Source of the DNA: Waddliaceae bacterium
Lineage (GTDB): Bacteria > Chlamydiota > Chlamydiia > Chlamydiales > SLOH01
Direction: 5' to 3'
Assembly (NCBI GenBank): GCA_040880105.1
Contig: JBBDJA010000030.1
Coordinates: 1-62,438, forward strand
DNA: 62,438 nucleotides
Part shown: positions 20,289 to 41,358 of the stretch, in pieces
Layout: every line of letters begins with the position of its first letter
How positions within the stretch are numbered: position 1 is the first letter of the stretch
Translations under genes and position numbers: made by a program
Notes under the pieces: generated by a model
Seen by the model: the letters and a program-made list of their open reading frames with translations, nothing else
Told to the model about the DNA's origin: nothing
The model's database searches: none

Positions 20289-20316
20289 AACCGAGAAGTG
20301 CCCGGAATTGGAAAAA

Positions 20317-21233: not shown

Positions 21234-21234
21234 T

Positions 21235-21324
21235 ATGAGTAATGTAGGTGTCATTGGAGCCGGCCCATCAGGATTCCGTGATTGCTTTGGATACTCTGTT
21301 TGCAAAGGCAATCATTTCTTTTAG
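21235..21324 (+). pseudogene. 5' stub of a flavin-dependent oxidoreductase
   Basis: MSNVGVIGAGPSG Rossmann motif, then premature stop. Confidence 0.55.
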
Positions 21325-21501
21325 TGATTTTGGGGACAACCCGAATATGCCAAAGCCTACAGCGGTCAGGATATTTAAAGTTCCTCAAGATCAAAAAGTG
21401 CTTGAGGTTATACGTCTAGAAAGAGGAAAAACTCCGGGGATTGTCGTCTATTCTAAATTGCTTGAAATTGTTGAAGTTTAGGAAGGTAGTTATCTGTTAA
21501 T

Positions 21502-21560
21502 AAAAAAACAGAACCTTACGGTTCTGTTTTTTAATTTCAATGGGAAGTGGAGAAGCGGAT
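21502..21560 (+). repeat. tmRNA-end junction repeat J1 (degenerate)
   Basis: aaaaaacagaacc-ttac-ggttctgtttttt hairpin then tgggaagtggagaag. Confidence 0.5.
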
Positions 21561-22280
21561 TTATTGGTGCATTGAGATTCCAATGCCAGAACGTTTACAC
21601 TCCTGTTTAAACCATTTATCCAGCGATAATTTAAATTCCCATTTTTTTTCTACATAATTAACCCACTCTTTATAAGTGCCTTCTGTATTTTCTGACTGAA
21701 ATTCTTCTATATGAGGACTATAGAATGAAAAATCACATTTTAAGGGATTGTCTTTTACATAGTTATAGGCTTCATATAGAGAGGCATTTGGATGAAAAGT
21801 TTGATAAACTTTTAACAGCTGATTTCGTTCTTTCATTGCCTTACTACCGGGTACTAGTATTTTGTATAACCCTGTTATAGGATTGAACATTAGATCGGGT
21901 TTTATAACGCACAAAGGAGTAAGTAGAATATCTATAATACCAGAGTTCCGTTCAGCTTTGCTTAGCGCAGCAGCATCTTCCTTGATTTGTTTTAAGGTTA
22001 ATTCATCTCTAATTTCTCTATTTTCATCTAGAAGGCGTTTAATTTCTCTTTTGCTCATATCAATCTGTTCTTTTAGAGCGTCCTGATCATTGCAATTCAT
22101 AATCTGAAAAGCAATTTGAATAGCTCTATACTCAACGGAATTAGCTTCGTGTGTCCAAAGAACTCTCAGCGCCTCCTCTCGATTGTTAATTGTAATTTGC
22201 CCTTCTTGATCAATAGATATCAGATCATTCAGAGTTTGATTGTTTTCGACGGCATTTATGGGAATCAAAGCTGCAGCCAT
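21561..22280 (-). CDS. Hypothetical coiled-coil protein, paralog 1
   Basis: N-terminal ~60 aa nearly identical to 22872-23606. Confidence 0.75.
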   Translation of the reverse strand: MAAALIPINAVENNQTLNDLISIDQEGQITINNREEALRVLWTHEANSVEYRAIQIAFQIMNCNDQDALKEQIDMSKREIKRLLDENREIRDELTLKQIKEDAAALSKAERNSGIIDILLTPLCVIKPDLMFNPITGLYKILVPGSKAMKERNQLLKVYQTFHPNASLYEAYNYVKDNPLKCDFSFYSPHIEEFQSENTEGTYKEWVNYVEKKWEFKLSLDKWFKQECKRSGIGISMHQ

Positions 22281-22871
22281 AGTAAGCTCCTTTTTTGTAA
22301 AAACTAAATATTTATGCTATTGTGACGTTTCTCTGAGAAAATTTCTATAAAAGAAAGTGATCTTTAATGCTTTTTTCAATAAAACCCTCTTTTTTCGAAG
22401 AAGAGCTGTACTGTTTGCTCCAAATTCATATCAATACATCGACAAAATTTCATTTTTTTTTATTCGACTGCGGACGCGCGAGTCGGTAGTTTAGCAGAAA
22501 GAGTAACTTAATAGCTGGTCCAGTTTTGGGGTCCACTGTAGAGAAGGCAATTGTGGACTATTTTAGGTTACACATAAAGGTGTGCTCAAGAGTCGGGTAA
22601 GGGACTTTCATGATGAATGGTTATTACTGTGATGGGGAATGTCTTAGGTAAGCTTTCGATATGCCCTGGTTAACCAGGGCAAAGATATGTGTTTTTCTTC
22701 TGATAATATTCTTTTATATCACATTCTAAGTAGCTTACCGTAATCTCTATTGTGAAGCTTTAGAAAATTGAAACCAGACATCTACGATTGGGTGCTAGTC
22801 TTTAATTATGCTTCCTCCCTTTTATTGGGAGGAATGACACAGTATTTTAGATTTTGGCACAGTTGCCGGAA

Positions 22872-23606
22872 TTACTCACGCTCTCTCACTATTTGAAAAC
22901 CAGTAGGACCATGATCTGTAAATCTTACTTTCCATCTACATTGAACTGGTAGTCTTTTTGTTCCTAGGTAATTAACAAATTCTTTGTAATCTCCTTCTGG
23001 ATGATTTTCCTGAAATTCTTCTATAAGAGAAGTGTAATCTTGAATATCATATTTTAAGGGGTTGTTTTTGACGTAGTTATAGGCATCAGTTAGAGAACTG
23101 TCTTTATGAAGAGTTTGATAAGCCGTTAACTGCGCTTTTCTGTAACGCATCGCTTCACTTCCAGGTATTAGTATTTTGCATAACCCCATTATAGGCTTAA
23201 CAACTAGCATAGGGGGGGCTACAATATGCAGGGGGGTGACTAGAATATCTAAAATACCATCGTTCCTTTCAGCAGCGCTCAGCGCAGCAGCATCTTCTTT
23301 CATTTGTTTTAAGGTATATTGATCCAGTTGATCTATAATTTTTGCCTTTTCTTCTTGAAGAGATTTGATTTCTCTTTCGCCCATTTCAACTTTTTCTTTT
23401 AAAGCATTTTGTTCATTGCTATTCATAATCTGAAAAGCAATTTGAACAGCTCTATATTCAATGGAATTAGTATCACATGTCCAAAGAACTCTCAGCGCCT
23501 CCTCTCGATTGTTAATTGTAATTTGCCCTTCTTGATCAATAGATATCAGATCATTCAGAGTTTGATTGTTTTCGATGGCATTTATGGGAATCAATGCTGC
23601 AGCCAT
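22872..23606 (-). CDS. Hypothetical coiled-coil protein, paralog 2
   Basis: Tandem paralog with shared upstream region. Confidence 0.75.
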   Translation of the reverse strand: MAAALIPINAIENNQTLNDLISIDQEGQITINNREEALRVLWTCDTNSIEYRAVQIAFQIMNSNEQNALKEKVEMGEREIKSLQEEKAKIIDQLDQYTLKQMKEDAAALSAAERNDGILDILVTPLHIVAPPMLVVKPIMGLCKILIPGSEAMRYRKAQLTAYQTLHKDSSLTDAYNYVKNNPLKYDIQDYTSLIEEFQENHPEGDYKEFVNYLGTKRLPVQCRWKVRFTDHGPTGFQIVRERE

Positions 23607-24122
23607 AGTGCGCTCCTTTTTGTAAAAAATAAATATTTATGCTATTGTGACGTTTCTTTGAGAAAATTTCTATAAAAGAAAGTGATTTTATCACTTCTGC
23701 CAATACAACCCCTTTTTTTTATGTAAGAGGAGTTTTAGTGTAGGCGCCGATCTTATATCAAGAGTATTGATTAAATTTCAATCTTTTTATTCGACTGTGG
23801 AGGCAACTTAGTAGTGTCAGCTTTCAGGGTTATGAATTTTGACTTCAAAGAAGGGAGCATCAATAGAAATCATAAAAATGAGCAGAAAAAACTATTTAAA
23901 GGAGAGTTTATTTCTAGTCTTACATAAAGAAATCACTCATCAAACTGTATTTCGTCATGGAGTGCATGCTGTTGCAGAAAATACAATGGAGTTGAGGGTT
24001 GGATTGAAGGTTACTCTTCAGTAACAAATTGGAAAATCAGAGTTTTGGACCCTGATTTCCAATAGTTATGGAGGATGAATTCGAGTTAAAGAAACTTTCG
24101 AAAAATTCATACTCTCATAATG

Positions 24123-24186
24123 AAGCAGAACCTATTGAATCTTTTTTTATGTATACGTGGAGAGGCAGGTTCAGACGTTTTAATCG
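24123..24186 (+). repeat. tmRNA-end junction repeat J2 (degenerate)
   Basis: Eroded aagcagaacc hairpin then gtggagaggcaggttcagacgtttt. Confidence 0.6.
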
Positions 24187-24237
24187 AATAAGAATTTAAA
24201 TTATTTGAGCGATTACTTTTCTTGGTCTTACATGGTC

Positions 24238-24492
24238 TTAGTGTTTGAAGTGGACAAAAATGCGGCCAAAATTTTTATTATCTTTCTCAATGCGGTGATA
24301 GAGTTTTTTTATATGTTTCTGATCTAAAAATCGGAGTACTTTCTTTTTGAGTTGACCACTGCCTTTTCCCGGAATGATCTCTACAAGGGAAATTTTTTTA
24401 CTGATAGCCTCTTCAATGACGCGGTTGAGCTCTTCATCAATGACACTTCCTTTGTTGTAGATGTCATGCAAGTCAAGTTTAATTTTTGCCAT
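24238..24492 (-). CDS. Stand-alone Smr/MutS2 domain protein
   Basis: KLDLH, EIIPGKGSGQLK, NFG. Confidence 0.85.
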   Translation of the reverse strand: MAKIKLDLHDIYNKGSVIDEELNRVIEEAISKKISLVEIIPGKGSGQLKKKVLRFLDQKHIKKLYHRIEKDNKNFGRIFVHFKH

Positions 24493-24856
24493 AACAAGCA
24501 GTATCCTATTGGTATCAGATTTTAGCCTATACAAAAATATGAATGAATTCCAGGTGAGAATGTGTACATCAAGTCACATCTAACAGTTAAGAATTTTTCG
24601 ACTCATTCCTTCAAGCTTTCCATCGAATTAACACATTAGAGGGGGCATATCTCTCAAATCCTTGTTTGTGACCCATAAATCCAAAAAAAATCCTCTGAAA
24701 ATCAATCATTTATAAATTCATGCTGCGTTTTTTTGAAAAATTAAGAATCAAAATCTAAGAGTAATTCAAGTATTCTAGGTTATGAAAAAAGTCAAAAAAA
24801 GTTTACATGTTTTGCTGTGATTGGTAAACATAGCACAGATAACCTAGGAGGGTACC

Positions 24857-25048
24857 ATGTCTAAGTATAGTTGTGATAAGTGTGGAATGCAGGTTGAGCC
24901 TTTGAAGTGTGGCAAGTGTGGTGTCGCATTAGAAAATCGAAAGATTGAAACCCAAGGCAATGAGGTACAGGTAGCTGAGTGTCCAAAAGGATGCGGAAAA
25001 GTGAAGTCACCTCAATGCTGTGGACATGATATGGATTTCAAAAAATAG
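24857..25048 (+). CDS. Small Cys-rich putative zinc-binding protein
   Basis: CDKC, CGKC, CPKGC, CCG; aggagg RBS. Confidence 0.75.
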   Translation: MSKYSCDKCGMQVEPLKCGKCGVALENRKIETQGNEVQVAECPKGCGKVKSPQCCGHDMDFKK

Positions 25049-25419
25049 TGATTTTGCCACATCATTTTCAAAAATAAAAAATCGTTTACTGTTAATGCGG
25101 TTTGGGACTGGTTTAAAAACACAATTGGCTCTACAGTACCTGATTGTGTCAAGGTTGTAGCGACATTTGGCAGGATTGATCCTGAGTTTTCTAATTATCC
25201 ATTACCATAGGAAACCTTTCGGGCCCACTTGAAAAATCTTTGTAAATTTGGAATCCTGGAATTTTCTGGAAATGATTTGGGGACCCCAGGTAGTTGTCAG
25301 TTTAAAGTTGTAAGCAAAAATTCACATTAGCAGATTAGTGACCCACCATGCTGGGTGATAAAGTGGAGATGAAGAAATATTTGCGCGTTACAATTTAGAT
25401 TGCATAGGAAAGAGTAGGC

Positions 25420-25499
25420 AAAAAAAAGCAGAACCATTTTGATTCTGCTTTTTTTCTTATAATTGGAAGTTGAGAGACAGTTTCAGAACTTTTTATTGG
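25420..25499 (+). repeat. tmRNA-end junction repeat J3
   Basis: aaaaaaagcagaacc/gattctgcttttttt hairpin; tggaagttgagagacagtttcagaactttttattgg. Confidence 0.75.
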
Positions 25500-25505
25500 T
25501 CAGAC

Positions 25506-26888
25506 CTATATCGCCAATTGGTTTTCTATGCTCTCAATCAGTCGATGCAGCTGTCCCAATAGATAGAATGGCAAAGAGAGCAGAGTATATTCTACAGGGG
25601 AGCTGTCGGAAGTCTTCACCTGAATTGGAGTAATTGAGGGATAATCGGAATTTATCCTAACAGCTAGGCTCCTTCCTTTAAGATGCATGAATTGGTGAAG
25701 AGACTTGAGTGCCCCTGTACTACCAGCCTTCACTTCTATTGGAACAACTATATTCCCATGCTGAACAATATAGTCAATCTCAGCGTTTGCTCCTGAATCA
25801 GTGCGTTGCCAGTAGTTGAGCGAAGGGGAAGCATAGGGTGGAAACAAGGTTCTCAACTGCTGCCCAACAAGCTGTTCTGCAATGCCACCGCTGTTAACTA
25901 GGCTTAGTTCTGATACCGATCTCAGCTGGTGTAGAGAGAGTCCAAGTTCAGCGCTAGCTAGACCACAATCCAGTAGGATAACCTTGAAGAACTTGTTTTT
26001 GATCTCGGCATTTAGAGGTAAGCCATTTGCCGAGGTTGCAAATACGCGGTGACACACACGGGCTTTATCTAGCAAGTCGAGAGCTTGTTTTAGCGGCGGA
26101 GTATTAACCTCTGAATTGGCGTGTGTGTAGATGAATTTTTTCCCAAGCTGGCGTGGCACTGAAGCTAAAAGTTCTTCTAGGCGTGCAGTTGATAGGCGGC
26201 CTCGATATTTAGCGAAGTCCTCACGGTAAGTAGTCAGTAGATCAAAGTGAACTTGACTGAGTGCGTCGAGGTTTTCCTGGGAACTCCAGCATGAAATGGC
26301 GGCAGGCATGCCACCAACGACTAAGTACTCCTTTACAGCTGAGAAAAGCTGCGTATGAATGGCAGCAGGAATGGTTTTACCTAGCTGATATGCTTGCAGA
26401 AACTTCCGAAGTTCATGGTTGCCAATTGCCTCCAAGAATTCTTCGAATGATAGTGGTTCAAGATACATATAACCGATTCGCCCCACCGGCATGCTAAATT
26501 CATGCTCGGCCAAAGCAAAGTCTAATAGAGAGCCAGCAGCTACGACTGGGAGTTCCGGCATATCTTCAGCAAACCAACGCAGTTTAGCGAGCAGGTGAGG
26601 TGCAGCTTGTATTTCATCCAGGAACAATATGGTGTTAGAAGGTTCGATAACTTTACCAAGAGATGCTGCGATATTGGCAACGGTCTCTTTTGGTTCATTT
26701 GAGTCAAACAAGGATTCAAGATCTGGTCGCTTCTCAAAATTCAACTCAATTAGCCGTCTATCGGTCGACGCAGCCAAATCCCGAATTAGCCAAGTCTTAC
26801 CCGTTTGCCTTGCCCCTCGAATAACTAAGGGCTTTCGTGTCTTTGTATTTAGCCAGTCAATTAAGAAAGAGGTGCGGTCGCGCTTCAT
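25506..26888 (-). CDS. AAA_14 ATPase with DUF4143 (PD-(D/E)xK-like) C-terminus
   Basis: GARQTGKT, LFLDEIQ, GGMP, AEIDY...PIEVK. Confidence 0.9.
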   Translation of the reverse strand: MKRDRTSFLIDWLNTKTRKPLVIRGARQTGKTWLIRDLAASTDRRLIELNFEKRPDLESLFDSNEPKETVANIAASLGKVIEPSNTILFLDEIQAAPHLLAKLRWFAEDMPELPVVAAGSLLDFALAEHEFSMPVGRIGYMYLEPLSFEEFLEAIGNHELRKFLQAYQLGKTIPAAIHTQLFSAVKEYLVVGGMPAAISCWSSQENLDALSQVHFDLLTTYREDFAKYRGRLSTARLEELLASVPRQLGKKFIYTHANSEVNTPPLKQALDLLDKARVCHRVFATSANGLPLNAEIKNKFFKVILLDCGLASAELGLSLHQLRSVSELSLVNSGGIAEQLVGQQLRTLFPPYASPSLNYWQRTDSGANAEIDYIVQHGNIVVPIEVKAGSTGALKSLHQFMHLKGRSLAVRINSDYPSITPIQVKTSDSSPVEYTLLSLPFYLLGQLHRLIESIENQLAI

Positions 26889-27077
26889 ATTATAGACTCC
26901 TTTTTCTTGATTCTATCCTAACCCTCCGTTTAAGTCTAGAAAACAAAGGGTTGTTTTTGTGTGTAAGCCTAGAAAACAAAGGGGTGTTTTGAAGGTTATC
27001 GTTAGAAAGGTTTGAGTTTTGTAGCTGTTTTATCGGCTAAAGTAACTGGGGATCAAATAGCCTTTGATGTAATGCAG
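26807..27077. repeat. Duplicated ATPase 5' end plus promoter, copy 1
   Basis: Near-identical to 37083-37318; carries an extra internal ~31-bp tandem unit. Confidence 0.85.
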
Positions 27078-27390
27078 TATGCGATTGTGCATCCAGCATT
27101 AATTCACAAGCTGATTTTATTGAATACAATGTCTCCCTCATCCGAAGAATTTTCTCTATTTGTGCAAGAATGGATGAAGCGAATGGCCCCATATCAAGAT
27201 GAACTCAAGGCAATTAAAAACAATCCAGAATTTACTAAAGGAAGTCTATCGCTTATTGAGAAATATATCGAATGATCTTCGGAAGATATTTTTATAATCC
27301 TGAGAAAGCAGATCTTCTCAATTTATATATGAGTCCAAAAGCGTCCATTGATGGAGCATAAGTTTATAAGATATTTACAAAGTCATTATT
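27063..27390 (+). pseudogene. Alpha/beta hydrolase fragment
   Basis: MQYAI.HP..I.KLILLN pattern following the nucleophile region; truncated with stops. Confidence 0.5.
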
Positions 27391-27786
27391 TTTTGAAAAA
27401 TGTTTTTGGGTTGGGGCTTTCAAACGAATAGATAAAGAAGGCTATGCAGTAGCGCGGCATATCTTCGGTGGCGAGCCTTCTGATCCTGAGATTTACAACT
27501 TTGTTCAGAATAATTACCAAGAGCTAGGACTTTGGAGAAGTTAGAAATATCGATGTACAAATCCAGAGAAAAAACCCAAAAAGAGTCCAGCGGGAAGTTC
27601 GCCGTGAAATGGAAAAAATAAAAGAAACCACTCGGTCTTCAACTTTAGCACAAGATTATATGAGGGAAGAACTTGAAAAAAAGAAAAAGGAAAGAAGAAA
27701 AGTCTCCAGCGCCCAGAAACAAGCTCGCATAGATGAGTAGTTTTCTATTAGGTAACAAAAAAAGCTGAAAAAAAGTGGTAGGTGAA
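27390..27786 (+). pseudogene. YjdF/DUF2992 family pseudogene
   Basis: FWVG, VARHIFGGEPSDPEIY, KNPKRVQR; frameshift and stops. Confidence 0.65.
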
Positions 27787-28235
27787 AGATTTTGGAAACT
27801 CTTCAAGAGTTTTGAAGGCATTTTTAGACGGCTACAAAGTCTGTAGGCATGTCGAATTCTAAGGGTTCTATCGATTGAGATTATTCGGTTATGTTTATAA
27901 TTTTAAAAGTTCTTCAAAAATCGTCATTTTTGGATAGCAATTGGTCAAGAAGCTAAAGTCTCAAATCCCTGTGTGTTGTTAGATTCATCTTGGAGCCTTT
28001 GTTTTCCGTTTTTTCCCATTTCACAACAGCAGGGTGGGTCACTCCAAAAAGTTTACCTTTGCTTAGAAAGGTTGCGTTAGCATTCCTTCACAAAAGATGA
28101 GTCTTTAAAATGTGGGCTGCTGCATCTTTTAAATACTGCGAACAGTTAATAAAAAATTTATTATTATTATTAATCATCTAATAAAAATACTTATATACTT
28201 GAAAAAAATGTTGTATTTCTTTAAACTAATTCATT

Positions 28236-29654
28236 ATGTTTAATACTGTCGGCGTTTATAGAGGGTCCTTTGATCCTCCTACTTTTGGTCACCTAGAAAC
28301 AGCTACCTGCTCTCTTAAGTATGGCGTTGATAAAGTCGTCATCGTTTTTACTGATAGTAATCCTTGTAAGCCTAACCGCAGCAGCGATGAAGTTCGTTTT
28401 GAACAGTTAAAAATATTATTTTATAGATGTCCATGGGCTTCAATAAGCAAAAAAAGCTTTAAGGCTACATTGCAAGGCCTTTTCGATGATCCCACAGTGA
28501 AAAGGGTTCGGTTAATTGTTGGCTTTGATCTCTTGTCAGTTAAATTCAGACCTGTAGCAAAGCCTAAAATTGTAGATTGTCTGGCTGTACCGAGAAACGA
28601 TTTTGATTTAGAATCCTTACCTAAAAGCTGGAACGGGCTACCTTTAGAAATCATCGATACTGAAGGGCTTTTGTATCGTCATACGAGTTCGTCACAGTTA
28701 CGTCTGGATCTGTCGGAGAATCGTCTTTGTGAAGCGTTACGCTTAGTGCCTCCAAATCTTTTTGAAAAGATTCTTGATAAGGGGCTTTATTCAATACCTT
28801 TGGTGCTAGTCGCTAATCGACTGCTAGCTAATTGCTCATTTGAATTGTGCGAACGCGGGTTCTCTGATGATGTTGTCATTTATATAAAGGACGAGTGTGG
28901 TAAACGTCAGCTTGTCGCAAAAATCTTTTCAAATCGTACTCGATTTAAAGCCGAATTTTCCGGCTATAGGAAGTTGCGCAAGCTGAATCTCAAGAGAATT
29001 AATATTCCGACAATTCATGTGGCAGAAGCTAATATGATCATCATGGACTATGTCAAAGGGAGCACTCTTGCAGAGATGATGGGCAGCAATTTGGAAGCAG
29101 TTCGTCTCTGTGCGAAAGCTAACCTTGAGCTTCACCAAGTGACGGCACGCGAATTAAAAAGCTATCCGAATGACTTGGAAGTTGTTGCCGGCAGAGTAGC
29201 GGCTTTATCTCAACGATATGCTGATGCTCTACAGGCCAGGTGTCAATCTTTAGTCCAGGATTTTTTAAAAGATCCGGGAATGCAAAGCGCTGTTCATGGG
29301 GATCCAAACCATTTTAATTGGATCGTAGACCTTGACGCGCGTACTGTTTTCTATATTGATTTTTCGAACTTCGATGAGCGTGGACACGCTATGAAAGAGC
29401 TGTATGAAGCTGATTTGTGTTTTTGGACAGCGGCGAAGCGAGTGGGGGGAATTGATAAGGAAGCTATTAAGTCGATACGAAACGAGTATATAAATGCATA
29501 CCTGAAAGAAGCGCCCTCATCAATGGCTACAGTAGCAGCACAAGCATATTTTAAGAGTTACTGGCAATTGCGTATTATCGAACATTTGCTTTTAGCACAG
29601 AAGCCGTGTGAGACGGAGCTTGTTGAATTTTTAGGTATTTATCAGGAGTGTTAA
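28236..29654 (+). CDS. Cytidylyltransferase-like (NadD/CoaD-type) nucleotidyltransferase fused to APH/choline-kinase-like phosphotransferase
   Basis: GSFDPPTFGH and SSS.LR; C-terminal VAK, HGDPNHFN, YIDF. Confidence 0.75.
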   Translation: MFNTVGVYRGSFDPPTFGHLETATCSLKYGVDKVVIVFTDSNPCKPNRSSDEVRFEQLKILFYRCPWASISKKSFKATLQGLFDDPTVKRVRLIVGFDLLSVKFRPVAKPKIVDCLAVPRNDFDLESLPKSWNGLPLEIIDTEGLLYRHTSSSQLRLDLSENRLCEALRLVPPNLFEKILDKGLYSIPLVLVANRLLANCSFELCERGFSDDVVIYIKDECGKRQLVAKIFSNRTRFKAEFSGYRKLRKLNLKRINIPTIHVAEANMIIMDYVKGSTLAEMMGSNLEAVRLCAKANLELHQVTARELKSYPNDLEVVAGRVAALSQRYADALQARCQSLVQDFLKDPGMQSAVHGDPNHFNWIVDLDARTVFYIDFSNFDERGHAMKELYEADLCFWTAAKRVGGIDKEAIKSIRNEYINAYLKEAPSSMATVAAQAYFKSYWQLRIIEHLLLAQKPCETELVEFLGIYQEC

Positions 29655-30586: not shown

Positions 30587-30592
30587 CCGCAT

Positions 30593-33129: not shown

Positions 33130-33922
33130 GCCTTCTCCACTTTGTTTGACGACTCATGCCATCAGCCAAAAAAATAGCTTTAAGGTGGGGGTGTTCTTGG
33201 CGAAAGTGCTTTAAAAATCGTTTGCAAGCATTGCGTTCACAATCATTTTTCTCTAAACCATCTTCTTTAAGAATAGGCTCCGGGCAAAGGGGGATAACAT
33301 TCTTTTGCTTGGGATGTACGAGACAGACTCCAAACATTTGATGGTAGTAGGAGATGCTTCTGTCGCGAGATTTTTTTTGGTAACAGGAGGGACAACTGAT
33401 CTTGTTTGAATGAAACTGTCCTGTTCCATCTCCAGAAAGCAATACATGTCTATCCAAAAAATCATATTTTACGAGGCCTTTTCCCCTTTGAAGAACTGAA
33501 AAAAAAGTTTTTTAAAAGCAGGACGAAGATATTTGGTATCTACGGCGTCAAGACGTTTTCTAAGATAGGTGTCACTGGGAGATTAATTTACATGGTAAAT
33601 ATCTCTTAGATATTTCTCAGTCGCAGTATCTTCTTTTTGCCTTTCAAAGGCAAGTAGAGAAGGACACTTTAGCTCAAAAATAGCAAGTCCTGACATTAAA
33701 TGATCCGTAAGAGAGATAGATGGCTCTCGATTAAAAGTGGCAATATCAGGAATTTTGTCGAATTCTTTGTAGATTGTGCGGATCAGCCCTGGGGCACACT
33801 GAGATGCTTGCGGAAGGACAAAGTCATAGTTAAGGCAACAATTTAAGGGTTCATAATGCCTCACAAGTTTACAAAACCTAATTTTAAATTACCTCCAAAA
33901 AATCATCCATTGGGAATTGCTG
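33127..33922 (-). mobile_element. Degraded IS with frameshifted DDE transposase
   Basis: Fragments LMSGLAIFELKCPSLL, DGTG..HS.KI.C..C, YYHQM, KNDCERNA, LADG; candidate end CAGCAATTCCCA at 33911-33922. Confidence 0.75.
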
Positions 33923-33993
33923 AGCAGTGCGTAACTCAGCTTTAACTAGTAGAAATTTTCGAGTTAAATTACTTGTTCTATCTCATTAAATAA

Positions 33994-34068
33994 GAAAGGC
34001 TTCACTCCTTGGAGTGAAGCCTTTCATTGGGATGGAGATGGAGAGACACGTTCAGAACTTTTGATTGG
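33994..34068 (+). repeat. tmRNA-end junction repeat J4
   Basis: gaaaggcttcactcc-tt-ggagtgaagcctttc hairpin; tggagatggagagacacgttcagaacttttgattgg. Confidence 0.85.
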
Positions 34069-34086
34069 GTTCAAATGGCTGAAAGT

Positions 34087-34230
34087 TGGCCGTATTCCGG
34101 CGGATACAGCCAATTCCTGTCTAATACGGCCAAAAAAACTTGTATATTTGGCCGTATTCTTGTTAAAATGGCCGTATTAGAGAAACAAGGTGGCTGTAAT
34201 GAGTTTGCGCGACAATAAAATGGCTGTATT
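34087..34230. promoter_or_regulatory. Cluster of seven TGGCYGTAWT-like boxes upstream of and at the start of the Fic gene
   Basis: Direct at 34087, 34149, 34169, 34191, 34221; inverted at 34103, 34123. Confidence 0.6.
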
Positions 34231-35545
34231 AAGACAATTAGGACTAGAGTCGGAACCAATTGGCTTGCCCGAGCTTATGCTTCGACTAGGTGAAGGATTT
34301 AAGGAGCGCTCGGTTAGACGATGGCTAAGTCTTTTAGTTGAAGAGGGCTCGGTTAAAAAAATAGGTCAGAAGCGAGGGACCAAATATTTTGCAGCTAGTC
34401 GTTCGGATGAAACAGTCGTTGATGTGAGTAGCTGTTTTAGTTCCGCGAGCTTAAAGGCTATTGAGGGTATAAAGAAGCCATTATTTGAGCGGCAGCCGGT
34501 TGCATACGCAGATGATTGGTTTGATGACTACCAACCCAATTTAACATACTACTTACCAGAAGCATTGCGACAACAACTGTTGGCATCGGGTGGGCGTGCG
34601 AATGAACAGGATCCTGCAGGCACCTATGCTCATCGAATATTCAACAGGCTGATCATTGACCTCTCATACAACTCCTCACGTCTTGAAGGCAACACCTATT
34701 CCCTTCTCGATACAGAGCGTTTACTTCTTCATGGCGATATTGCTGAAGGGAAGCTTGATGAGGAGAAGGCGATGATCCTGAATCATAAAGAGGCTATTCG
34801 CCACCTTGTTGACAATGCATCAAAAATCGAAGTCTCTCGTAATGTTATCTGTACCCTGCATTACCTCTTGTCAGATGGTCTTGTTGAATCTTCAGAGGTC
34901 GGAAAGGTTCGAAAGCATGGCGTGCGTATCGGCGGGTCAACCTACATGCCCTTTGAAGATCCAAGGAGATTAGATCTGCAATTGGAGAAGATCGCCGCAA
35001 AGGCAGCGAAGATCCAGAATCCTTATGAACTGAGTTTTTTCTTATTGGTTCATGTGAGCTACTTGCAGGCCTTTGCTGACGTCAATAAGCGGACCGCTCG
35101 GTTGTGTGCCAATATTAGTTTGATCAAAGGGAACCTCGTTCCGCTTGCGTTCAGCGATGTTCGTGTCGAGGATTACATGTCAGCAATGATAGTTATTTAC
35201 GAATTGCAGAATGTGCAACCATTGATCGACCTCTATGTTTACTCCTATCTGCGGACTTGTGCCGCCTATGACTCCACTGTGAAGGCAATGGGTTTTGACG
35301 AAGTGCGTGTAAGGTATCGACAAGAACGCAGGGCTGTCGTGCGAGAGGTTATTCTAAGGATGTTAAAAGGTCAGTTGATGAAGGAGTTTGTGGATGCAGA
35401 AGCAGCGTCCCGCGTCCTTCCAATAGTTCAAAAAGCTTTCGCCGAAGATGTATTAGAAGATTTAGAACAAATAGATGAAAGCCGTTTGGCTGGACTAGGA
35501 GTGACTTCGGAACAGCTCAACGCATGGAAACGATTAAATCCTTAA
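34190..35545 (+). CDS. Fic family protein with N-terminal wHTH
   Basis: SSRLEGN inhibitory motif; variant Fic motif LQAFADVNKRTAR. Confidence 0.9.
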   Translation: MAVMSLRDNKMAVLRQLGLESEPIGLPELMLRLGEGFKERSVRRWLSLLVEEGSVKKIGQKRGTKYFAASRSDETVVDVSSCFSSASLKAIEGIKKPLFERQPVAYADDWFDDYQPNLTYYLPEALRQQLLASGGRANEQDPAGTYAHRIFNRLIIDLSYNSSRLEGNTYSLLDTERLLLHGDIAEGKLDEEKAMILNHKEAIRHLVDNASKIEVSRNVICTLHYLLSDGLVESSEVGKVRKHGVRIGGSTYMPFEDPRRLDLQLEKIAAKAAKIQNPYELSFFLLVHVSYLQAFADVNKRTARLCANISLIKGNLVPLAFSDVRVEDYMSAMIVIYELQNVQPLIDLYVYSYLRTCAAYDSTVKAMGFDEVRVRYRQERRAVVREVILRMLKGQLMKEFVDAEAASRVLPIVQKAFAEDVLEDLEQIDESRLAGLGVTSEQLNAWKRLNP

Positions 35546-35951
35546 AAAGATGTATCAAAGATGAACAATAACCTTAAAGAACAAGAATGGATTGAGGTGA
35601 TTGGAAAACGCTTTCACTTGATATACTGAGATGTAAAATGCCTCGAGGCCATAGTTGAATCCAGCTTTCTCAATTGGCAAAACATAAATCGTTAAGTAAA
35701 ATCATAGATGTTTGATTGATAAAGGCATGTAAGGGAATGGCTCTACTAGTCGATGTATTAGAGTGAAAGCTCGGGGTTTATACCAGAGTTCGTGCTTGTC
35801 TCAAATCTGCAACGAGTCTTTTTCCTTCGTCTGTTAAAACGTACTCTTCCCAGGTATATAAACTATCATTCCATTATTATTTTCTGATCCGCAGCTTGTT
35901 GTGCCATTCTTTGCAAGTAGATTGCCTTTTAGAAGGTATAGGACCTGGATT

Positions 35952-36251
35952 TCAATAAGACCTGGTAGACAAATTGTGTTTTCTTTTGGATCGTCGCAAA
36001 AAACGTATAAGATTCTTCTTGTAGATTTGAAGGGCATTCTGATCTATTTCATTTGTGCGATGGTGTCGCGCATGGCATTTAGTGCAAAGTGCAATTAAGT
36101 TGTCAAAGGTATGTTTCTTACATTTTTCATAGGGGATATTATGATGTATATCGATAGGATGATCTTTGCACGTGGGTATAGCGCATCGATGACCTGCTTC
36201 TATTTTAATTTGCCTTTTAAGCTTTTCTGGAATAGATGGGCGGCTTGTCAA
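35952..36251 (-). CDS. HNH endonuclease (probably truncated)
   Basis: EAGHRCAIPTC, HH, NLIALCTKCH. Confidence 0.8.
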   Translation of the reverse strand: MTSRPSIPEKLKRQIKIEAGHRCAIPTCKDHPIDIHHNIPYEKCKKHTFDNLIALCTKCHARHHRTNEIDQNALQIYKKNLIRFLRRSKRKHNLSTRSY

Positions 36252-36265
36252 TGTGAGTTCCTTCT

Positions 36266-36348
36266 AAAAAAAAAGCCTATCAAATATTGATAGGCTTTTA
36301 ATATTTGGTAACATTGGAGGTGGAGAGGCAGATTTAGAACTTTTGACT
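36266..36348 (+). repeat. tmRNA-end junction repeat J5
   Basis: aaaagcctatcaa/ttgataggctttt hairpin; tggaggtggagaggcagatttagaacttttga. Confidence 0.9.
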
Positions 36349-36420
36349 CTACCAAATTGCATCTTTTCAAGCCTTGGGAAGATGTGCTATCCTGTAAAGT
36401 TCTCTAATCTTGGATAATTT

Positions 36421-36897
36421 ATGACAATCACTTTGGAAAAAGCCACTTCTGAAGATGCTGAGAAATTGCATGCTATACAAATAAAATCCTTTTTGCCTCT
36501 TTTAGAAAAATATCAGGACCACGAAATTAACCCAGCATGTGAGCCTATAGACAAAACCCTACAAAGAATAAATGATCCTTTGAAAGGCTTCTATAAGATT
36601 TTGAAGGATAATATTTTGGTTGGTGGGATTGCAATAAAGCATATATCCACTGAGATTATATTTTTAGGACCCATTTTTATTGATCCTATTTTTCAAAACC
36701 AAAAGATCGCTCAAACAGTCTTACAACTTATTGAAAATATATTTCCTTCTGTACATTTCTTTGAGCTACGTACTCTAGCTCAAGAAAAAGGCAATATTCA
36801 TCTCTACGAGAAAATGGGGTATGTGATTCAAGGGGAAAGTGAAAAAATAAGTGATTCGGATGAGATTGTGTTTTTTAGAAAAAAAATAACGCACTAA
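36421..36897 (+). CDS. GNAT N-acetyltransferase
   Basis: IFIDPIFQNQKIA, NIHLYEKMGY. Confidence 0.85.
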   Translation: MTITLEKATSEDAEKLHAIQIKSFLPLLEKYQDHEINPACEPIDKTLQRINDPLKGFYKILKDNILVGGIAIKHISTEIIFLGPIFIDPIFQNQKIAQTVLQLIENIFPSVHFFELRTLAQEKGNIHLYEKMGYVIQGESEKISDSDEIVFFRKKITH

Positions 36898-37082
36898 ATA
36901 GCGATAGTTTAACTTTACAAGAGTTAATTTTATTGATTCCTTTAATGCCATATTTGACATAAATGTACTCAGCTAAATCGCGCAATAAATATTGGCCATC
37001 AGCAGGTTTCAAAATGGGATGATAAGGTGACGCTGTAGATAAAACTTGGGCTGTGCCTATACAATCAATTGCCTTTTTAGAA

Positions 37083-37318
37083 GCCTTGCCCCTCGAATAA
37101 CTAAGGGCTTTCGTGTCTTTGTTTTTAGCCAGTCAATTAAGAAAGATGTGCGGTCGCGCTTCATATTATAGACCCCATTTTCTTGATTCTAGCCAAACCC
37201 TCTGTGTAAGCCTAGAAAACAGGGGGATGTTTTGAAGGTTATCCTTAGAAAGCTTTGAGTACTGTAGCCTTATAGCGGCCAAATTATTCGGGATCAAATA
37301 GTCCTAGATGTAATGCAG
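37083..37318 (-). pseudogene. Duplicated 5' stub and promoter of the AAA-DUF4143 ATPase, copy 2
   Basis: Encodes MKRDRTSFLIDWLKTKTRKPLVIRGAR then breaks off; matches 26807-27077. Confidence 0.85.
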
Positions 37319-37358
37319 ATAGCTAAAAATTGGCTTTATTGAATGAAAAGGAATTATG

Positions 37359-37437
37359 AAAAAGCCTATCAAATTGATAGGCTTTTAAATTTTGGTAACG
37401 TTGGAGGTGGAGAGACGCATTCAGAACTTTTGAGTGG
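37359..37437 (+). repeat. tmRNA-end junction repeat J6
   Basis: Same hairpin as J5/J8; tggaggtggagagacgcattcagaacttttgagtgg. Confidence 0.92.
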
Positions 37438-37484
37438 GCGATTTCCAGAATTCGACTGTTGGCTCTGCCTGTTGTTTCAACTAT

Positions 37485-38010
37485 TCAAGATCCAAGCAGA
37501 ATGTTTCTTTGATGAAATTCGGCTTGGCCAAGGTAGAAGCAAAGTAGACATGCTGGGATCCTCAGGAGAGCCTTCTCTCCCTGATCATCTACTTTTACAC
37601 GACCGAGATCGTTCGGTGATTTGGTGGCTATGAATCCTTGGGTGATCTGCTCTTTTTTCTTGATCAAATCAATGAGGCCTGGAACATCTCTAGCCTCCAC
37701 GCCTTGCGCCTGATATTTGATCTCAAATGGGAATATGGCGCCATCTAACTCTACAATTAGATCCACCTCCTTTTCCTCTTTTGTGCTACGCCAGTAACTA
37801 AAGCGTGCTTGATTTGTACGGCAATGTGACCATAGATGTCCAATCACCGCCGTTTCTACGCATTGACTCAGTGCTAATGGGGTCTCAAGGATTGTCTTAC
37901 CTTTGATTAATACAGCTGGTGCTATTGCAGGATCACTCAGATAGATTTTATTTTTCCCGCGTAGAACTTGCTTGCCGTAGCCATACGGAAGGAGTTTATA
38001 AATAAGGTGT
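37485..38010 (-). pseudogene. 3' fragment of an ATPase-DUF4143 gene
   Basis: KIYLSDPAI, AVETAV, YWR...EVDLIV...PFEIKY; 5' part missing at J7. Confidence 0.75.
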
Positions 38011-38078
38011 CAGAACCCAGAGATTCTGCTTTCTAGTCTAGATGGAGGTGGAGAGACAAGTTTAGAACTTTTGAATGG
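38011..38078 (+). repeat. tmRNA-end junction repeat J7
   Basis: cagaacc..gattctgctt hairpin remnant; tggaggtggagagacaagtttagaacttttgaatgg. Confidence 0.88.
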
Positions 38079-38261
38079 AATCTGTGGAGCCAAAAATGGC
38101 CGTATTTTTGAGAATGCGGTCAAAATTCTTCAAAATTGGTCCCATCTATGTAGTTAACTTGCCTAATTGTGGTATTTTATGAGGTTTTATACTGACTTAT
38201 ACCTATTTATATCTGCTTTCAGGTATAAATGGATATAGATACATATAGATAGAGGTACCAC

Positions 38262-39458
38262 ATGGATCCAATCAAAAATCCCTATTCGCCAGGAGCAGGC
38301 ACTCCACCGCCGGAGCTTGTGGGTCGCGACCCCATTCTCAAGCAAGCCGATATTCTATTGGGGCGCATTCAGGCTGGCCGTCCAGAAAAGAGCATGCTGC
38401 TTACTGGTCTCCGAGGTGTTGGAAAAACGGTGTTACTAAATGAAATGCAGCGGCGGGCAGAAGCAATGGGTTATAAGACTATTTTTGTTGAGGCGCATGA
38501 AGATAAACCACTGGGGCTGTTGCTTGCACCACACTTACGCCAATTACTTTATTCGTTGGATCGAATGGCTAACGTTGAGAGCAAAGTGAAGCGTGCTCTT
38601 GCTGTTTTTCGAAGTTTTTTGGGACGGTTAAAGGTAACCTATAACGATGTTTCAATTGGTTTGGATATAGAGCCTGAGATTGGGACGGCTGATAGTGGCG
38701 ATCTTGAAATTGATCTTCCAGAGCTGATGGCTGTGATTGGTGAGGCTGCACAGGATCGTGAGTGTTCAGTAGCAGTCTTTATTGATGAAGTCCAGTATTT
38801 AAGCCCCAAAGAATTGGGGGCTCTTATCATGGCCTTGCATAAGCTACAACAACGACAACTACCTGTGTTGTTATTGGGTGCCGGCCTTCCTGTTTTACCA
38901 GGGCTTGCCGGGCAGTCCAAATCTTATGCCGAGCGCTTGTTCAGTTTTCCCGACGTAGGTGCTTTATCAAGATCTGACGCAGACAAAGCACTTCAAGATC
39001 CAGCGAATAAGCAGGGAGTGAGCTTTGAAGAGCCCGCACTCGATCGAGTATATGAACTAACCCTTGGGTATCCCTATTTTCTTCAAGAGTGGGGGTATTC
39101 AGCTTGGAATCAAGCAGAGACATCACCTATTACGAGCACAGTAGTAAATGATGTCTCTCCAATTGTGATTCACAAACTAGACGAGAATTTCTTTAGGGTG
39201 CGGTTTGATAGGCTTGTTCCGAGTGAAAAGCAGTTCCTCCGTGCAGTGGCAGAGCTGGGATCTGCTCCCCAACGAATTGGTGACGTGGCCGAGATGATGG
39301 GAGTCGAGACCGGAAGCTTGAGCCCTCGTCGAGCAAAGTTAATTAGGAAGGGAATGATTTACAGTCCCTCACATGGTACCATAGCTTTTACAGTCCCCTT
39401 ATTCGATCAGTTTATGGTTCGAGCTATGCCAGAGTTCTCAAATAAGCTTAGAAAGTAA
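38262..39458 (+). CDS. AAA ATPase (AAA_16-like) with C-terminal wHTH
   Basis: NPYSPGAG, GLRGVGKT, FIDEVQ, GYPYFLQ. Confidence 0.88.
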   Translation: MDPIKNPYSPGAGTPPPELVGRDPILKQADILLGRIQAGRPEKSMLLTGLRGVGKTVLLNEMQRRAEAMGYKTIFVEAHEDKPLGLLLAPHLRQLLYSLDRMANVESKVKRALAVFRSFLGRLKVTYNDVSIGLDIEPEIGTADSGDLEIDLPELMAVIGEAAQDRECSVAVFIDEVQYLSPKELGALIMALHKLQQRQLPVLLLGAGLPVLPGLAGQSKSYAERLFSFPDVGALSRSDADKALQDPANKQGVSFEEPALDRVYELTLGYPYFLQEWGYSAWNQAETSPITSTVVNDVSPIVIHKLDENFFRVRFDRLVPSEKQFLRAVAELGSAPQRIGDVAEMMGVETGSLSPRRAKLIRKGMIYSPSHGTIAFTVPLFDQFMVRAMPEFSNKLRK

Positions 39459-39537
39459 AAAGCCTATCAAAATTTGATAGGCTTTTAAATTTTGGTAATG
39501 TTGGAGGTGGAGAGACGAATTCAGAACTTTTGACTGG
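39457..39537 (+). repeat. tmRNA-end junction repeat J8
   Basis: aaaagcctatcaaa/tttgataggctttt hairpin; tggaggtggagagacgaattcagaacttttgactgg. Confidence 0.92.
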
Positions 39538-39868
39538 AGTAGAATAAAGATCTCAAGTGTATTCAATTCTTCTAATTCCACCCAGGCAGCAATGGGAGTC
39601 CCAGGTGATGGAACGAGCACCTTGGAAAAACGACGGGGTATGCTCCTTAAATAGAAGCGGTACCTATCCATATTAATGAAAATCGTCCTAAAGAGAGCCC
39701 TAGATAGTTTGAGGCTTACTGCAGCTTTAATAATTAAGCAACTGATTGAAAATAAGTCACTTAAACACTATTTTTCGGCAACTTGCTCAAAAAAACATCT
39801 TTTTTTTCTTACACTTTATTATCGATATTCGATAATATTTGATCGTTATTCAATAAATACGGGGTTAT

Positions 39869-40444
39869 ATGAAAACAAAAAGAAAAATAAATATTTTGAG
39901 CCGAGTTTTCCGAGTTATAGCTATACTGCAAGCAATCGAAACGGCATGGGGTGGAATTAGTCGTTGGATGGCAGCTCCCTTCTCAGAGCCTGCTCTTCCT
40001 CAAATTAGCATGATATTTGTTAATTCTTCTTTAAGAACCCAGATTTCTTCATTAAGTGAAATGGCTGTCTCGTTAAAAGTTATTGGGGTGTTGGACTATT
40101 TTACACCAATTATTGCAAAAGTTTTTATATATGTATTTTTAGCTCTATTATTCACAGAGTATAAAAAGGGAAATATTTTTTCTGAAAAAGCTCTTAAATT
40201 GATCCGAAATGTGGGTTGTGTGGTGCTTGCTGGAACATTATTATCCTTAATTTATTCGTTTGTAACATACAATCTTCTTCCCGACCAGTTTCCAATTATA
40301 CACAGGAAGCTGCAAGGCATAATGATCTATGGTCCGATTGGCTATAGTTTGAGATTTATTACAGGGGGTCTTTTCATCATATTTATTAGTTGGATAATGA
40401 ATATGGGGAAAAAGCTTGAGGATGAACAGAAGTATACGGTGTGA
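39869..40444 (+). CDS. DUF2975 family membrane protein
   Basis: Four TMs, G.IFS, G..L.DEQ..TV C-terminus, HTH gene follows. Confidence 0.8.
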   Translation: MKTKRKINILSRVFRVIAILQAIETAWGGISRWMAAPFSEPALPQISMIFVNSSLRTQISSLSEMAVSLKVIGVLDYFTPIIAKVFIYVFLALLFTEYKKGNIFSEKALKLIRNVGCVVLAGTLLSLIYSFVTYNLLPDQFPIIHRKLQGIMIYGPIGYSLRFITGGLFIIFISWIMNMGKKLEDEQKYTV

Positions 40445-40445
40445 T

Positions 40446-40652
40446 ATGCCAATATTAATTAATCTTGATGTTGTTTTATCAAAAAAGAAAATCCGTTTAA
40501 AAGAGCTTGCTGCTGCAGTTGACATTACGGAGCAAAATCTGTCTATCTTAAAAACAGGTAAAGCGAAAGCAATCCGCTTTAGTACTCTTGAAGAAATATG
40601 CAGAGTGCTTGACTGTCAACCAGGCGACATTCTTGAATACAAAAAGGATTAG
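40446..40652 (+). CDS. Cro/CI-type HTH regulator (YozG-like)
   Basis: NLSILKTGKAKAIRFSTL..IC..L.CQPGDIL. Confidence 0.92.
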   Translation: MPILINLDVVLSKKKIRLKELAAAVDITEQNLSILKTGKAKAIRFSTLEEICRVLDCQPGDILEYKKD

Positions 40653-40999
40653 TATATAAAGGGGTAAGTGAACTTCTAACTAAGCGTCTAAAAAAGTTAG
40701 AAGGTCCCAAAAAACGTCAGATCGAGATTGCTGAGGAGATGAAAAACCATGAGAAGGCTGATCAAAACTATTATGTCACAGCGAATATGGTCCTGAATTT
40801 AGCGGCTCGTGCGAGAGAAATCTTCGAAAGTTCTGAAGTGGATGAAAAACGGGAATTGCTGAATTTGGTGTTTCAGAACTTAAAATTAGAGGGTAAAAAA
40901 ATGCTCACGGAAGACCGTGAGCCATTTTCTACTATGATTGGATATAAGGATCATCCAACCAATTGGAGGTGGAGAGAATCGAACTCTCGTCCTTGGTAA
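40653..40999 (+). pseudogene. C-terminal remnant of a large serine recombinase reading into the antisense of the tmRNA 3' end
   Basis: LA.RA.EIFESSEVDEKRELLNLVFQNL.L.G; ends WRWRESNSRPW across ssrA; no catalytic domain present. Confidence 0.7.
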
Positions 41000-41358
41000 A
41001 CTCCATACTAACCTCTACATGCTTAGCACCCTGTAAATATTCCGACCCCCTGCAGAATGCGCCGGTTGAGGCCGAAACGCTTCATTTAATCTTGACTAAG
41101 GCTCCCTAGAAGCTACGGAAACCAGAGTCATACCAAGTGTATAACAACAGACCCCAAAACCCTTGGTGAAATTTCAGGCTGTCGTGCGATTGTTGCGGTT
41201 AAGCAGCCATCGCAAGTGCAGGCTCTTCTGAAACAGAAAAGTCTACAGCAAAGATTTTATCTTCTGCATTTGTGTTTTTTCCGGTGTTCTTAAAGAGGTT
41301 ACCGAAATCCCCTGCATGCAATCAATACTTTGTTTCCTAGTCGAAACCAGTCACCCCC
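40964..41358 (-). ncRNA. ssrA: tmRNA
   Basis: 5' GGGGGTGACTGGTTTCGAC; 3' GAGAGTTCGATTCTCTCCACCTCCA; tag ORF 41199-41267 AEDKIFAVDFSVSEEPALAMAA*. Confidence 0.95.

Follow-up and report, generated by a model that had tools for sequence, protein, structure and literature searches.

Stacked recombination scars behind the tmRNA gene of a Waddliaceae bacterium: probable remnants of serine- and tyrosine-integrase islands

We analyzed a 62,438-nucleotide stretch of DNA (hereafter, the window; GenBank assembly GCA_040880105.1, contig JBBDJA010000030.1, positions 1 to 62,438, forward strand) from a Waddliaceae bacterium of the phylum Chlamydiota, in which short accessory units are stacked behind ssrA, the gene for transfer-messenger RNA (tmRNA). 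The boundaries between these units, here called junctions, consist of a terminator-like hairpin, a 14-mer resembling the tmRNA 3' end and a short conserved motif. Sequence comparison identifies this motif as the orphaned tail of a large serine recombinase (LSR): the attachment site of the parental element (attP) appears to lie within the last codons of the LSR gene, and each junction appears to be a scar of the hybrid attR type. With moderate confidence, we attribute the array to the accretion at ssrA of islands encoding either this LSR or a tyrosine integrase, their reduction by deletion to integrase-free units, and the movement of these units as passengers.

Eight junctions lie behind ssrA, six strong and two eroded, all in the same orientation. 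Serial insertion at this gene, which the first-pass annotation of the window had proposed, is supported. The features that define the array are the following.

40964..41358, minus strand: tmRNA gene ssrA, whose 3' end is the single target site and the putative attL of the newest element
40682..40999, plus strand: C-terminal stub of an LSR gene (open frame from 40637; 5' part deleted), ending in W-R-W-R-E-S-N-S-R-P-W
40903..40922, minus strand: terminator-like hairpin with a U-tract, within the LSR coding sequence and facing tmRNA
39457..39537, plus strand: junction (putative attR scar); family-A hairpin 39458-39486, 14-mer 39502-39515, integrase tail to 39537
38011..38078, plus strand: junction; family-B hairpin with the U-tract lost, 14-mer 38043-38056, tail
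37359..37437, plus strand: junction; family-A hairpin, 14-mer 37402-37415, tail
36270..36350, plus strand: junction; family-A hairpin, 14-mer 36315-36328, tail
33881..34068, plus strand: junction; family-C arm with terminator 33994-34025 and a box region to 33881, 14-mer 34033-34046, tail
25416..25499, plus strand: junction; family-B hairpin, 14-mer 25464-25477, tail
24119..24187, plus strand: eroded junction; family-B arm, 14-mer and tail degenerate
21499..21576, plus strand: most eroded junction; family-B hairpin, partial 14-mer, tail lost

The two short motifs by which the array was originally recognized match the window 7 and 12 times, against 0.91 (mean) and 4.2 matches after shuffling. 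The first-pass annotation suggested scanning this and related genomes with a junction profile; we built one from 171 junctions of other genomes only and ran it against the whole 1.67-Mb genome. All six strong sites (36-64 bits; 14-mers at 37402, 39502, 34033, 38043, 36315 and 25464) fall inside the array and on a single strand, the 14-mer at 24152 scores 3.5 bits, and no further site reaches 2 bits genome-wide. Among the 401 genomes of the phylum, the junction pattern, with up to 3 mismatches allowed, occurs in 153, compared with 0 for the reversed-pattern control; one family has 0 of 30. A second profile, which combines hairpin and core and likewise derives from other genomes, picks up both distal junctions, at 21499-21557 (E 1.6e-6) and 24119-24185 (E 2e-4), with a top match on any other contig at E 1e-3. 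For the junction at 21541, where the tail motif is gone (-34 bits), support comes from the hairpin arm and the partial 14-mer; a weak repeat at 33310 was ruled out as a junction (-18 bits). Erosion thus grows with distance from tmRNA, and the units measure, from tmRNA outward, 1462, 1459, 641, 1087, 2282, 8569, 1312 and 2611 bp. The junction layout described originally holds for the hairpins, except that the one at 38011 is without a U-tract (-8.2 kcal/mol) and the one at 24123 is weak (-6.7 kcal/mol). By their terminator-side arms, the junctions fall into three families (A, three; B, four; C, one), and the junction-plus-arm repeats within the window reach ~80 bp at 87-94% identity. Contigs from sequencing runs X1 and X2, both of a single study and X1 perhaps the source of the assembly itself, match long stretches of the array, several of them across junctions, which makes an assembly artefact unlikely; the junction array behind tmRNA is real.

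The identity of the conserved motif emerges from the LSR stub that adjoins tmRNA. The stub shares 88% identity with the end of P0001, a 501-residue homolog with resolvase, recombinase and zinc-ribbon domains (PF00239, PF07508 and PF13408), and its own terminal residues are encoded by the antisense strand of the tmRNA end. On the plus strand, the strong junctions encode, in one frame, W-R-W-R-D-x-F-R-T-F-D/E-W or a worn form of it. The same peptide is the protein end of 4 of 66 LSR homologs (P0010, P0021, P0023 and P0028), and most of the remaining homologs end in antisense tmRNA, tRNA-Tyr or tRNA-Ile sequence, the tRNA labels being our own reading, backed by the loci themselves. In 5 of 7 metagenome loci (L334-L336, L338 and L339), one of which, L336, carries two LSR elements in tandem, the LSR frame runs directly into the tail. 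Ten further tail codons, compared across 17 arms grouped by DNA similarity, show 12, 22 and 48 differences at codon positions 1, 2 and 3, respectively; a count of stop-free frames was discarded because the motif itself biases it. The stub, the protein ends, the in-frame loci and the codon bias together argue that attP is contained in the integrase gene and that each junction is an attR with an orphaned tail, and the first two of these bear out the earlier proposal of a serine recombinase as the agent.

The LSR family matches the TP901-1 and A118 integrases by sequence and serine-integrase complexes and structures by fold. Intact relatives carry the ARVSS motif, with the catalytic serine, and the LSR domain set; the window retains only the C-terminal stub, and no PF07508 or PF00239 match was found in its genome (90% complete), in agreement with the original description of a single recombinase stub for the whole array. 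Integration leaves ~487 of the 500-520 residues of the LSR intact and swaps only the short tail, an exchange that may regulate the enzyme. AlphaFold models left the role of the tail unsettled: the tail of P0021 has a predicted local distance difference test score (pLDDT) below 50, and that of P0028 forms a short helix (pLDDT ~67-73) with unreadable contacts.

The first-pass annotation took the 14-mer for a replacement tmRNA end. This interpretation has to be given up because, in paired attL/attR cases, the 14-mer follows the element rather than the host gene, and it encodes integrase tail. At positions 10-14, the sequence departs from that of the adjacent host gene and tracks the element type in L147, L149, L152, L209, L071, L091 and L099; positions 6-9 track the element in L148 and L151, where the target, of tRNA-Ile(CAT) type, reads otherwise; position 4 does so in L099 and position 7 in L232, and position 1 differs in L152. 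These comparisons place the crossover firmly to the left of position 10 and point to the GG at positions 2-3, equivalent to the CC of the tmRNA CCA end, as its likely site, with the 14-mer reading mostly as element arm. Positions 8-9, our first guess, were dropped after L148, L151 and L099. Relative to the tmRNA arm, where it belongs to the T-loop, a GAAC sequence lies 5 bp farther outward in the element arm, and an offset of 5 bp is the one described for the motifs bound by the LSR zinc-ribbon domain in passages of PMC3783163; taken alone, this geometry is compatible with both positions 2-3 and 8-9. Target choice seems to vary among close relatives: of two LSRs that agree at 461 of 486 residues (95%), one ends in tRNA-Tyr and the other in tRNA-Ile sequence. 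In a tree of 40 proteins, the LSRs that target tmRNA group in a single supported branch.

Intact parent elements exist in other Chlamydiota. Among 20 fetched LSR regions, 14 have an upstream scar, delimiting elements of 6.6-16.5 kb. The gene before the LSR often encodes either a Schlafen/AlbA_2 protein or a primase/helicase (AAA_25 with a zinc ribbon or Toprim, DUF927, D5), and one element (L149) has genes for a small and a large terminase subunit. By gene content, the parents look like phage satellites or tycheposons. Pfam scans found neither a relaxase nor a second serine recombinase among the open reading frames (ORFs) of the parents, and the 110 ORFs of 17 LSR loci included no DsiA, ParB, Mom or tRNA-like locus. 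Two integrase-bearing loci (L139 and L336) have integrase-free units distal to the LSR elements. We also observed a 170-residue ORF that is kept before the LSR or its neighbor in seven elements (L138:6277-6792 and six homologs) and is a candidate directionality factor or packaging-related protein; neither this ORF nor a conserved 450-residue ORF of the parents could be named by searches of the ESM Atlas and PHROGs.

The terminator arms lead to a second class of islands. A strict terminator facing the RNA gene is present at 95 of 268 distinct junctions (controls 1-6, shuffles 0-2), and an LSR-derived arm at 9; for the 178 tmRNA-type junctions, the respective numbers are 88 and 6. A relaxed terminator test was discarded because it did not separate from its control (21 versus 16 of 99). 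The arms sort into families common to several hosts, and the arm of the junction at 39457..39537 runs on for ~180 nt in a module that 16 further arms also contain. Family C comprises 23 arms in 17 genomes of 11 host families, a spread that rules out a host terminator. Its repeated boxes recur in a second class of junctions that contain a tmRNA fragment of 21-24 nt including the T-loop; the inner boxes, once considered as an origin of transfer or replication, are more probably arm sites of a tyrosine integrase. An intact 12.7-kb island in G338 encodes a tyrosine integrase and a primase/helicase, its family-C arm adjoins tmRNA, and the boxes recur at its far end, which is why we trace the family-C terminator, the type found at 34033, to such islands; that the terminator belongs to the design of an LSR cassette, as had been supposed, is not supported. 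G206 holds a second such island with a different arm. An LSR element that landed before a family-C arm would yield precisely the succession of hairpin, 14-mer and tail. Judging from these islands, two integrase families use the ssrA 3' end. Unit L082, which encodes neither integrase, is chimeric, with 2.2 kb 90.6% identical to an LSR-tail unit followed by 1.2 kb 82-88% identical to the proximal cargo and arm of the tyrosine-integrase island in G338, and half-deleted states, an LSR stub followed by a tyrosine scar, are found in L100 and L085. The intact LSR elements L103 and L104 contain a hairpin similar to that at 40903-40922. In G042 (L094, oriented 16230-18661), a 164-nt arm after tmRNA recurs at the next junction, ~110 nt of it repeat with a period of 179 bp inside the unit, and similar sequence follows tmRNA in L006, L010, L022 and L092.

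We compared units in 40 regions around junctions, chosen with a bias to multi-copy genomes, plus the window, which gave 99 units from 31 genomes of 18 families. Small integrase-free units, prominent in the original description, are indeed the rule: the median length is 1.7 kb, 67 of the 99 units do not exceed 2.5 kb, and any LSR sequence is present in only 5, leaving 94 without. The cargo ORFs are divided between the strands 106 to 93 and, among the 134 of 199 scanned, include toxin-antitoxin genes, RhuM, GNAT acetyltransferases, methyltransferases, HNH nucleases and transporters. When two units from different genomes share at least 400 nt from the tail end (15 pairs), they are colinear to the terminator end in one case and, by eye, share the arm family in three; of 7 pairs that share the terminator end, one shares the tail end as well, and a second covers the whole shorter unit. 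Integrase-free units 92.5% and 94.5% identical over the whole shorter unit occur in different host families. In the window, two genes are truncated at a neighboring feature: the LSR stub starts just past the stop codon of the upstream helix-turn-helix (HTH) gene, and a DUF4143 fragment starts at the 38011 hairpin, which presumably marks a deletion end point. These truncations and the rarity of colinearity favor trimming by deletion over the purpose-built cassettes envisaged previously; the units appear to be mostly mosaics, some of which moved whole between host families. Unit-level variation among relatives, on which the original proposal depended, is seen in this comparison and in sequencing run X4 of another study, with pieces ~95% alike, where one contig joins position 36274 to 40964: the four proximal units are missing there, tmRNA abuts the unit with HNH and Fic genes, and the ends of the missing block are an attR and tmRNA, as expected from one composite insertion or excision. 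Parts of the array left uncovered in runs X2-X4 were not counted as absent.

These observations suggest the following scenario. Satellite-like elements of Chlamydiota, 7-16 kb in size and carrying an LSR, often a primase/helicase, and cargo, would leave attR scars as the LSR recombines attP with the ssrA 3' end, probably at the GG that corresponds to the CC of CCA. After integration, the far end of the element would carry the stranded tail (W-R-W-R-D-x-F-R-T-F-D-W...), and the LSR would have an ending encoded by antisense tmRNA; the newest element would then adjoin tmRNA, with older units displaced outward. Tyrosine-integrase islands would enter the same site and bring terminator-bearing arms, and deletion between the tail end of one element and the terminator end of another would strip the integrase and replication genes, leaving units of 0.6-3 kb that are cis-mobilizable. 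Excision of a live LSR element between the tmRNA site and a scar farther away may carry such units along as passengers. With its last LSR reduced to a stub, the array in the genome of the window would stay idle unless an intact element arrives.

Several observations weigh against this scenario. Families A and B, which account for 7 of the 8 arms in the window, could be traced to no parent island or host, and the family-A pattern, found in 4 of 401 genomes, likewise has no parent island. Near-identical arms occur with different cargo within one genome (three of family A and four of family B in the window, four in G033, 164 identical nucleotides in G042), which calls for repeated arrivals or for the re-insertion of terminator-ended circles, and arms are shared in 25 of 291 within-genome pairs compared with 207 of 7022 between-family pairs. 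All 17 C-ended units are without the LSR and without the tyrosine attR, a cleaner outcome than deletions at random would perhaps produce. A 1.7-kb unit with no integrase occurs in two host families beside different neighbors and is 92.5% identical between them from end to end, and no circular form was found in the 7 attP-like metagenome loci. The joint in X4 is a single contig of depth 5.4 with 30 letters on its short side, and part of 39343-41343 is nevertheless covered in X4. Finally, the mapping of the crossover takes the nearest scar to be that of the adjacent element.

Some of these points would fit an integron-like system, in which an LSR supplied in trans treats the terminator-tail combination like attC and the tmRNA end like attI, so that small circles re-insert at the front of the array. 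We consider such a system unlikely. The cassette-like size of the units, their cargo of toxin-antitoxin, GNAT, methyltransferase and RhuM genes, the excess of strict terminators over LSR-derived arms at tmRNA-type junctions and over controls, the repetition of terminator arms within genomes, and the one unit common end to end to different families all speak for it; furthermore, with the crossover at the end of the gene, the host-side arm cannot be conserved, and the enzyme must tolerate variable arms. Against this stand 14 of the 15 shared-tail pairs, which are not colinear to the other end; the commonest terminator arm, which is that of a tyrosine-integrase island; cargo on both strands; genes cut at unit ends; and the normal behavior of serine integrases, which block such pairings according to the portion of PMC3783163 available. 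The integron likeness stressed in the first-pass annotation also fails in that no IntI lies beside the site and the cargo is not co-oriented. The most ambitious form of this idea, an integron counterpart run by a serine recombinase in environmental chlamydiae, with cutting at the CCA end, the downstream arm ignored, every terminator-tail combination live, a roaming LSR recycling the units and the swap of the aromatic tail acting as a switch between integration and excision, is likewise doubtful.

We give still less credence to the possibility that the units are dead fossils, each the remnant of an island inserted in the lineage of the window and immobile since the loss of its integrase. The genome of the window indeed has no intact LSR, erosion rises outward, and relics and truncations are present, yet the 92.5% and 94.5% identity of integrase-free units in different host families, the nearly unchanged motif at many integrase-free junctions, and the difference in X4, a block bounded by attachment sites, all speak against immobility. 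Homologous recombination or DNA uptake via the repeated junctions, with the site-specific enzyme unneeded after the first insertion, could draw on the ~80-bp repeats in the window and is very improbable given the sharing of units between host families with unrelated flanks and the strict polarity and clustering at one gene.

The LSR and its scars are widespread in the phylum. At E 1e-20 or better, P0001 has matches in 88 of 400 genomes, 33 of them near full length by a hand count among the matches listed. A scan of all GTDB species yielded at least 134 stretches with the junction pattern; among the 80 matches listed, 54 are titled chlamydiae, 3 are Patescibacteria, with other 14-mers, and 5 are otherwise labelled. 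In the Patescibacteria (L183, L219 and L229), the same D-x-F-R-T-F-D-W tail follows these 14-mers. No close relative of the locus was found in the JGI metagenomes or in the sole genome of the same genus (57% complete and without a tmRNA match), and viral contigs yielded no junction and a sole LSR at 36% identity. A 64% LSR homolog (L341, NZ_AP017978.1:135070-136422) lies in a record annotated as Neochlamydia sp. S13 plasmid pS13, with an annotation shorter than the match. RNA genes other than ssrA host related arrangements: in G018 (L099, oriented 9586-12872), tmRNA-type tails are stacked behind a tRNA-Tyr gene, where one and the same 45-nt flank follows the tRNA and precedes the distal junction, and in G146 (L293:2078-10940), an intron-containing gene of tRNA-Ile type hosts a tyrosine-integrase island together with an LSR element.

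The gene labels originally given to the units of the window hold on checking. Counted outward from tmRNA, the cargo is as follows.

39869..40652, plus strand: unit 1, DUF2975 membrane protein and Cro/C1 HTH protein
38262..39458, plus strand: unit 2, AAA ATPase (PF13191)
37485..38009, minus strand: unit 3, DUF4143 fragment, with an open frame that starts right at the 38011 hairpin
36421..37318, plus strand: unit 4, GNAT acetyltransferase (36421-36897) and a relic (37083-37318), a 79% copy of 26807-27077
34190..36251, both strands: unit 5, Fic protein (34190-35545, plus) and HNH protein (35952-36251, minus)
25506..33888, strand not assigned: unit 6 (8.6 kb), AAA+DUF4143 gene, DUF2992 relic, gene cluster 28236-33129 and broken ORFs 33023-33888
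24238..25048, both strands: unit 7, Smr-domain gene (minus) and small Cys-rich ORF (plus)
21561..23606, minus strand: unit 8, two tandem paralogs of no known family, 78% identical in DNA

Several of these genes have homologs directly behind junctions in other families, namely the AAA+DUF4143 gene (90%, G388), Fic (79-82%, G195 and G141), GNAT (74%) and the AAA ATPase of unit 2 (69%, G336). The four-gene cluster of unit 6 encodes a cytidylyltransferase-like nucleotidyltransferase plus kinase, a DXD glycosyltransferase, an unnamed ORF and a GT28-like protein; it has no homolog among the fetched loci and is present at ~95% identity in run X4. The broken ORFs next to it cut the family-C arm, have no Pfam match and resemble a transposase relic. 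A second pair of tandem paralogs, encoding F-box proteins, lies at 44561-46085, beyond ileS. The accessory region probably continues to the left of 21.5 kb (9977-21481), with no junction detectable by profile there: G037 has homologs of a ferric reductase (63%) and of Smr (86%) downstream of its tmRNA, and G265 has a hydrolase homolog (79%) in the distal part of its array. Immediately left of the array, at 15181-18373, are a bacteriophytochrome histidine kinase (PAS/GAF/PHY), unexpected in a chlamydia-like organism, and a heme oxygenase gene.

Our searches, which reached few subscription papers, found no published description of the ssrA scar system in chlamydiae; the system is real, occurs widely and seems not to have been described in print for Chlamydiota. 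Environmental chlamydiae live inside cells, and the routes by which they gain genes are little described. The hot spot behind ssrA offers one concrete route, fed by two integrase families and carrying defence, toxin-antitoxin and detoxification genes common to host families. An LSR whose target is the CCA end of tmRNA or tRNA genes, whatever the downstream arm, could also serve as an integration tool.

Several known systems bear comparison with the array. Integrons possess a tyrosine recombinase, IntI, beside attI, and cassettes ended by attC that are co-oriented and read from one promoter. The array resembles them in its units of one to two genes added at one site, newest first, and in the similar cargo; it differs in the absence of IntI and of any fixed integrase beside the site, in cargo on both strands and in terminators between units. 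The two PF00589 matches in the genome of the window are both on other contigs, the neighbor of the site being the LSR stub, and the junction repeats read as terminator plus integrase tail, with only tmRNA recovered by Rfam. The staphylococcal cassette chromosome (SCC, SCCmec) forms composite islands whose Ccr recombinases are LSRs, with insertion at the 3' end of a gene and stacked elements. These traits are shared, as are DUF927 genes in some parents, whereas P0001 scores 94.2 bits against an NCBIfam cut-off of 900 for CcrB, the target is an RNA gene, and there is a single recombinase.

The rewriting of an integrase gene by integration, with a translated attachment site, and target switching among tRNA genes are described, in the portions available, for the suicidal integrases of SSV type (PMC7253208). 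Phage Mx8, named in PMC4383910, is a further case of an integrase that extends across attP. Those enzymes are tyrosine recombinases, in contrast to the chlamydial LSR, which swaps only a short tail, and serine integrases were not known in 2014 to target tRNA genes, according to part of PMC4383910. With tycheposons and additive islands, as presented in sections of bioRxiv 2020.12.28.424599 and PMC4898812, the chlamydial parents share the combination of integrase, primase/helicase and cargo and the stacking at tRNA and tmRNA genes; the same sections, by Hackl et al. and by Lopez-Perez and Rodriguez-Valera (2016), report that newcomers displace older material and that near-identical cassettes occur in distant species. 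In the available text, 910 of 937 tycheposon elements use tyrosine recombinases (bioRxiv 2020.12.28.424599), and an attP inside an LSR gene does not appear in the accessible parts of either source. The parents encode an integrase and often a primase/helicase, and one has packaging-type (terminase) genes, as phage satellites and tycheposons do.

The presumed history of the units is that of cis-mobilizable elements (CIMEs), for which integration, decay to an integrase-free element that keeps its attachment sites, insertion of a newcomer and composite excision are outlined in the part of the review of Guedon et al. (2017; PMC5704250) that we could use, under accretion at attachment sites. The 94 integrase-free units keep such sites, and in L139 and L336 units of this kind stand in tandem with an integrative element. 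The same part of the review describes CIMEs for conjugative or mobilizable elements; no relaxase was seen in the chlamydial parents, and two integrase classes share the chlamydial site.

Islands stacked at ssrA, together with remnants that have no integrase, are already known as a general pattern, from the tandem ssrA islands of Dehalococcoides with the serine integrase DsiB (McMurdie et al. 2011, PMC3146451; read here from part of the article). As in the window, tandem units behind ssrA are bounded there by repeats of the ssrA 3' end, the 3' end of the LSR gene overlaps attL and its C-terminus is variable, a conserved motif stands beside the repeat, and 15 of 31 islands have no integration module and were proposed to be cis-mobilizable. 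The differences are the phylum; the six-gene module including DsiA there, compared with primase/helicase and terminase-type genes in the chlamydial parents; the much smaller chlamydial units; and the crossover, placed in the T-loop there and at least 5 nt nearer the 3' end by the chlamydial data. The word "terminator" is absent from the main text of that article (PMC3146451). Its authors suggest that DsiB is perhaps complete only on the circle, and the chlamydial LSR family brings within reach of testing this question of 2011, whether an integrase that spans attP is controlled by its own tail.

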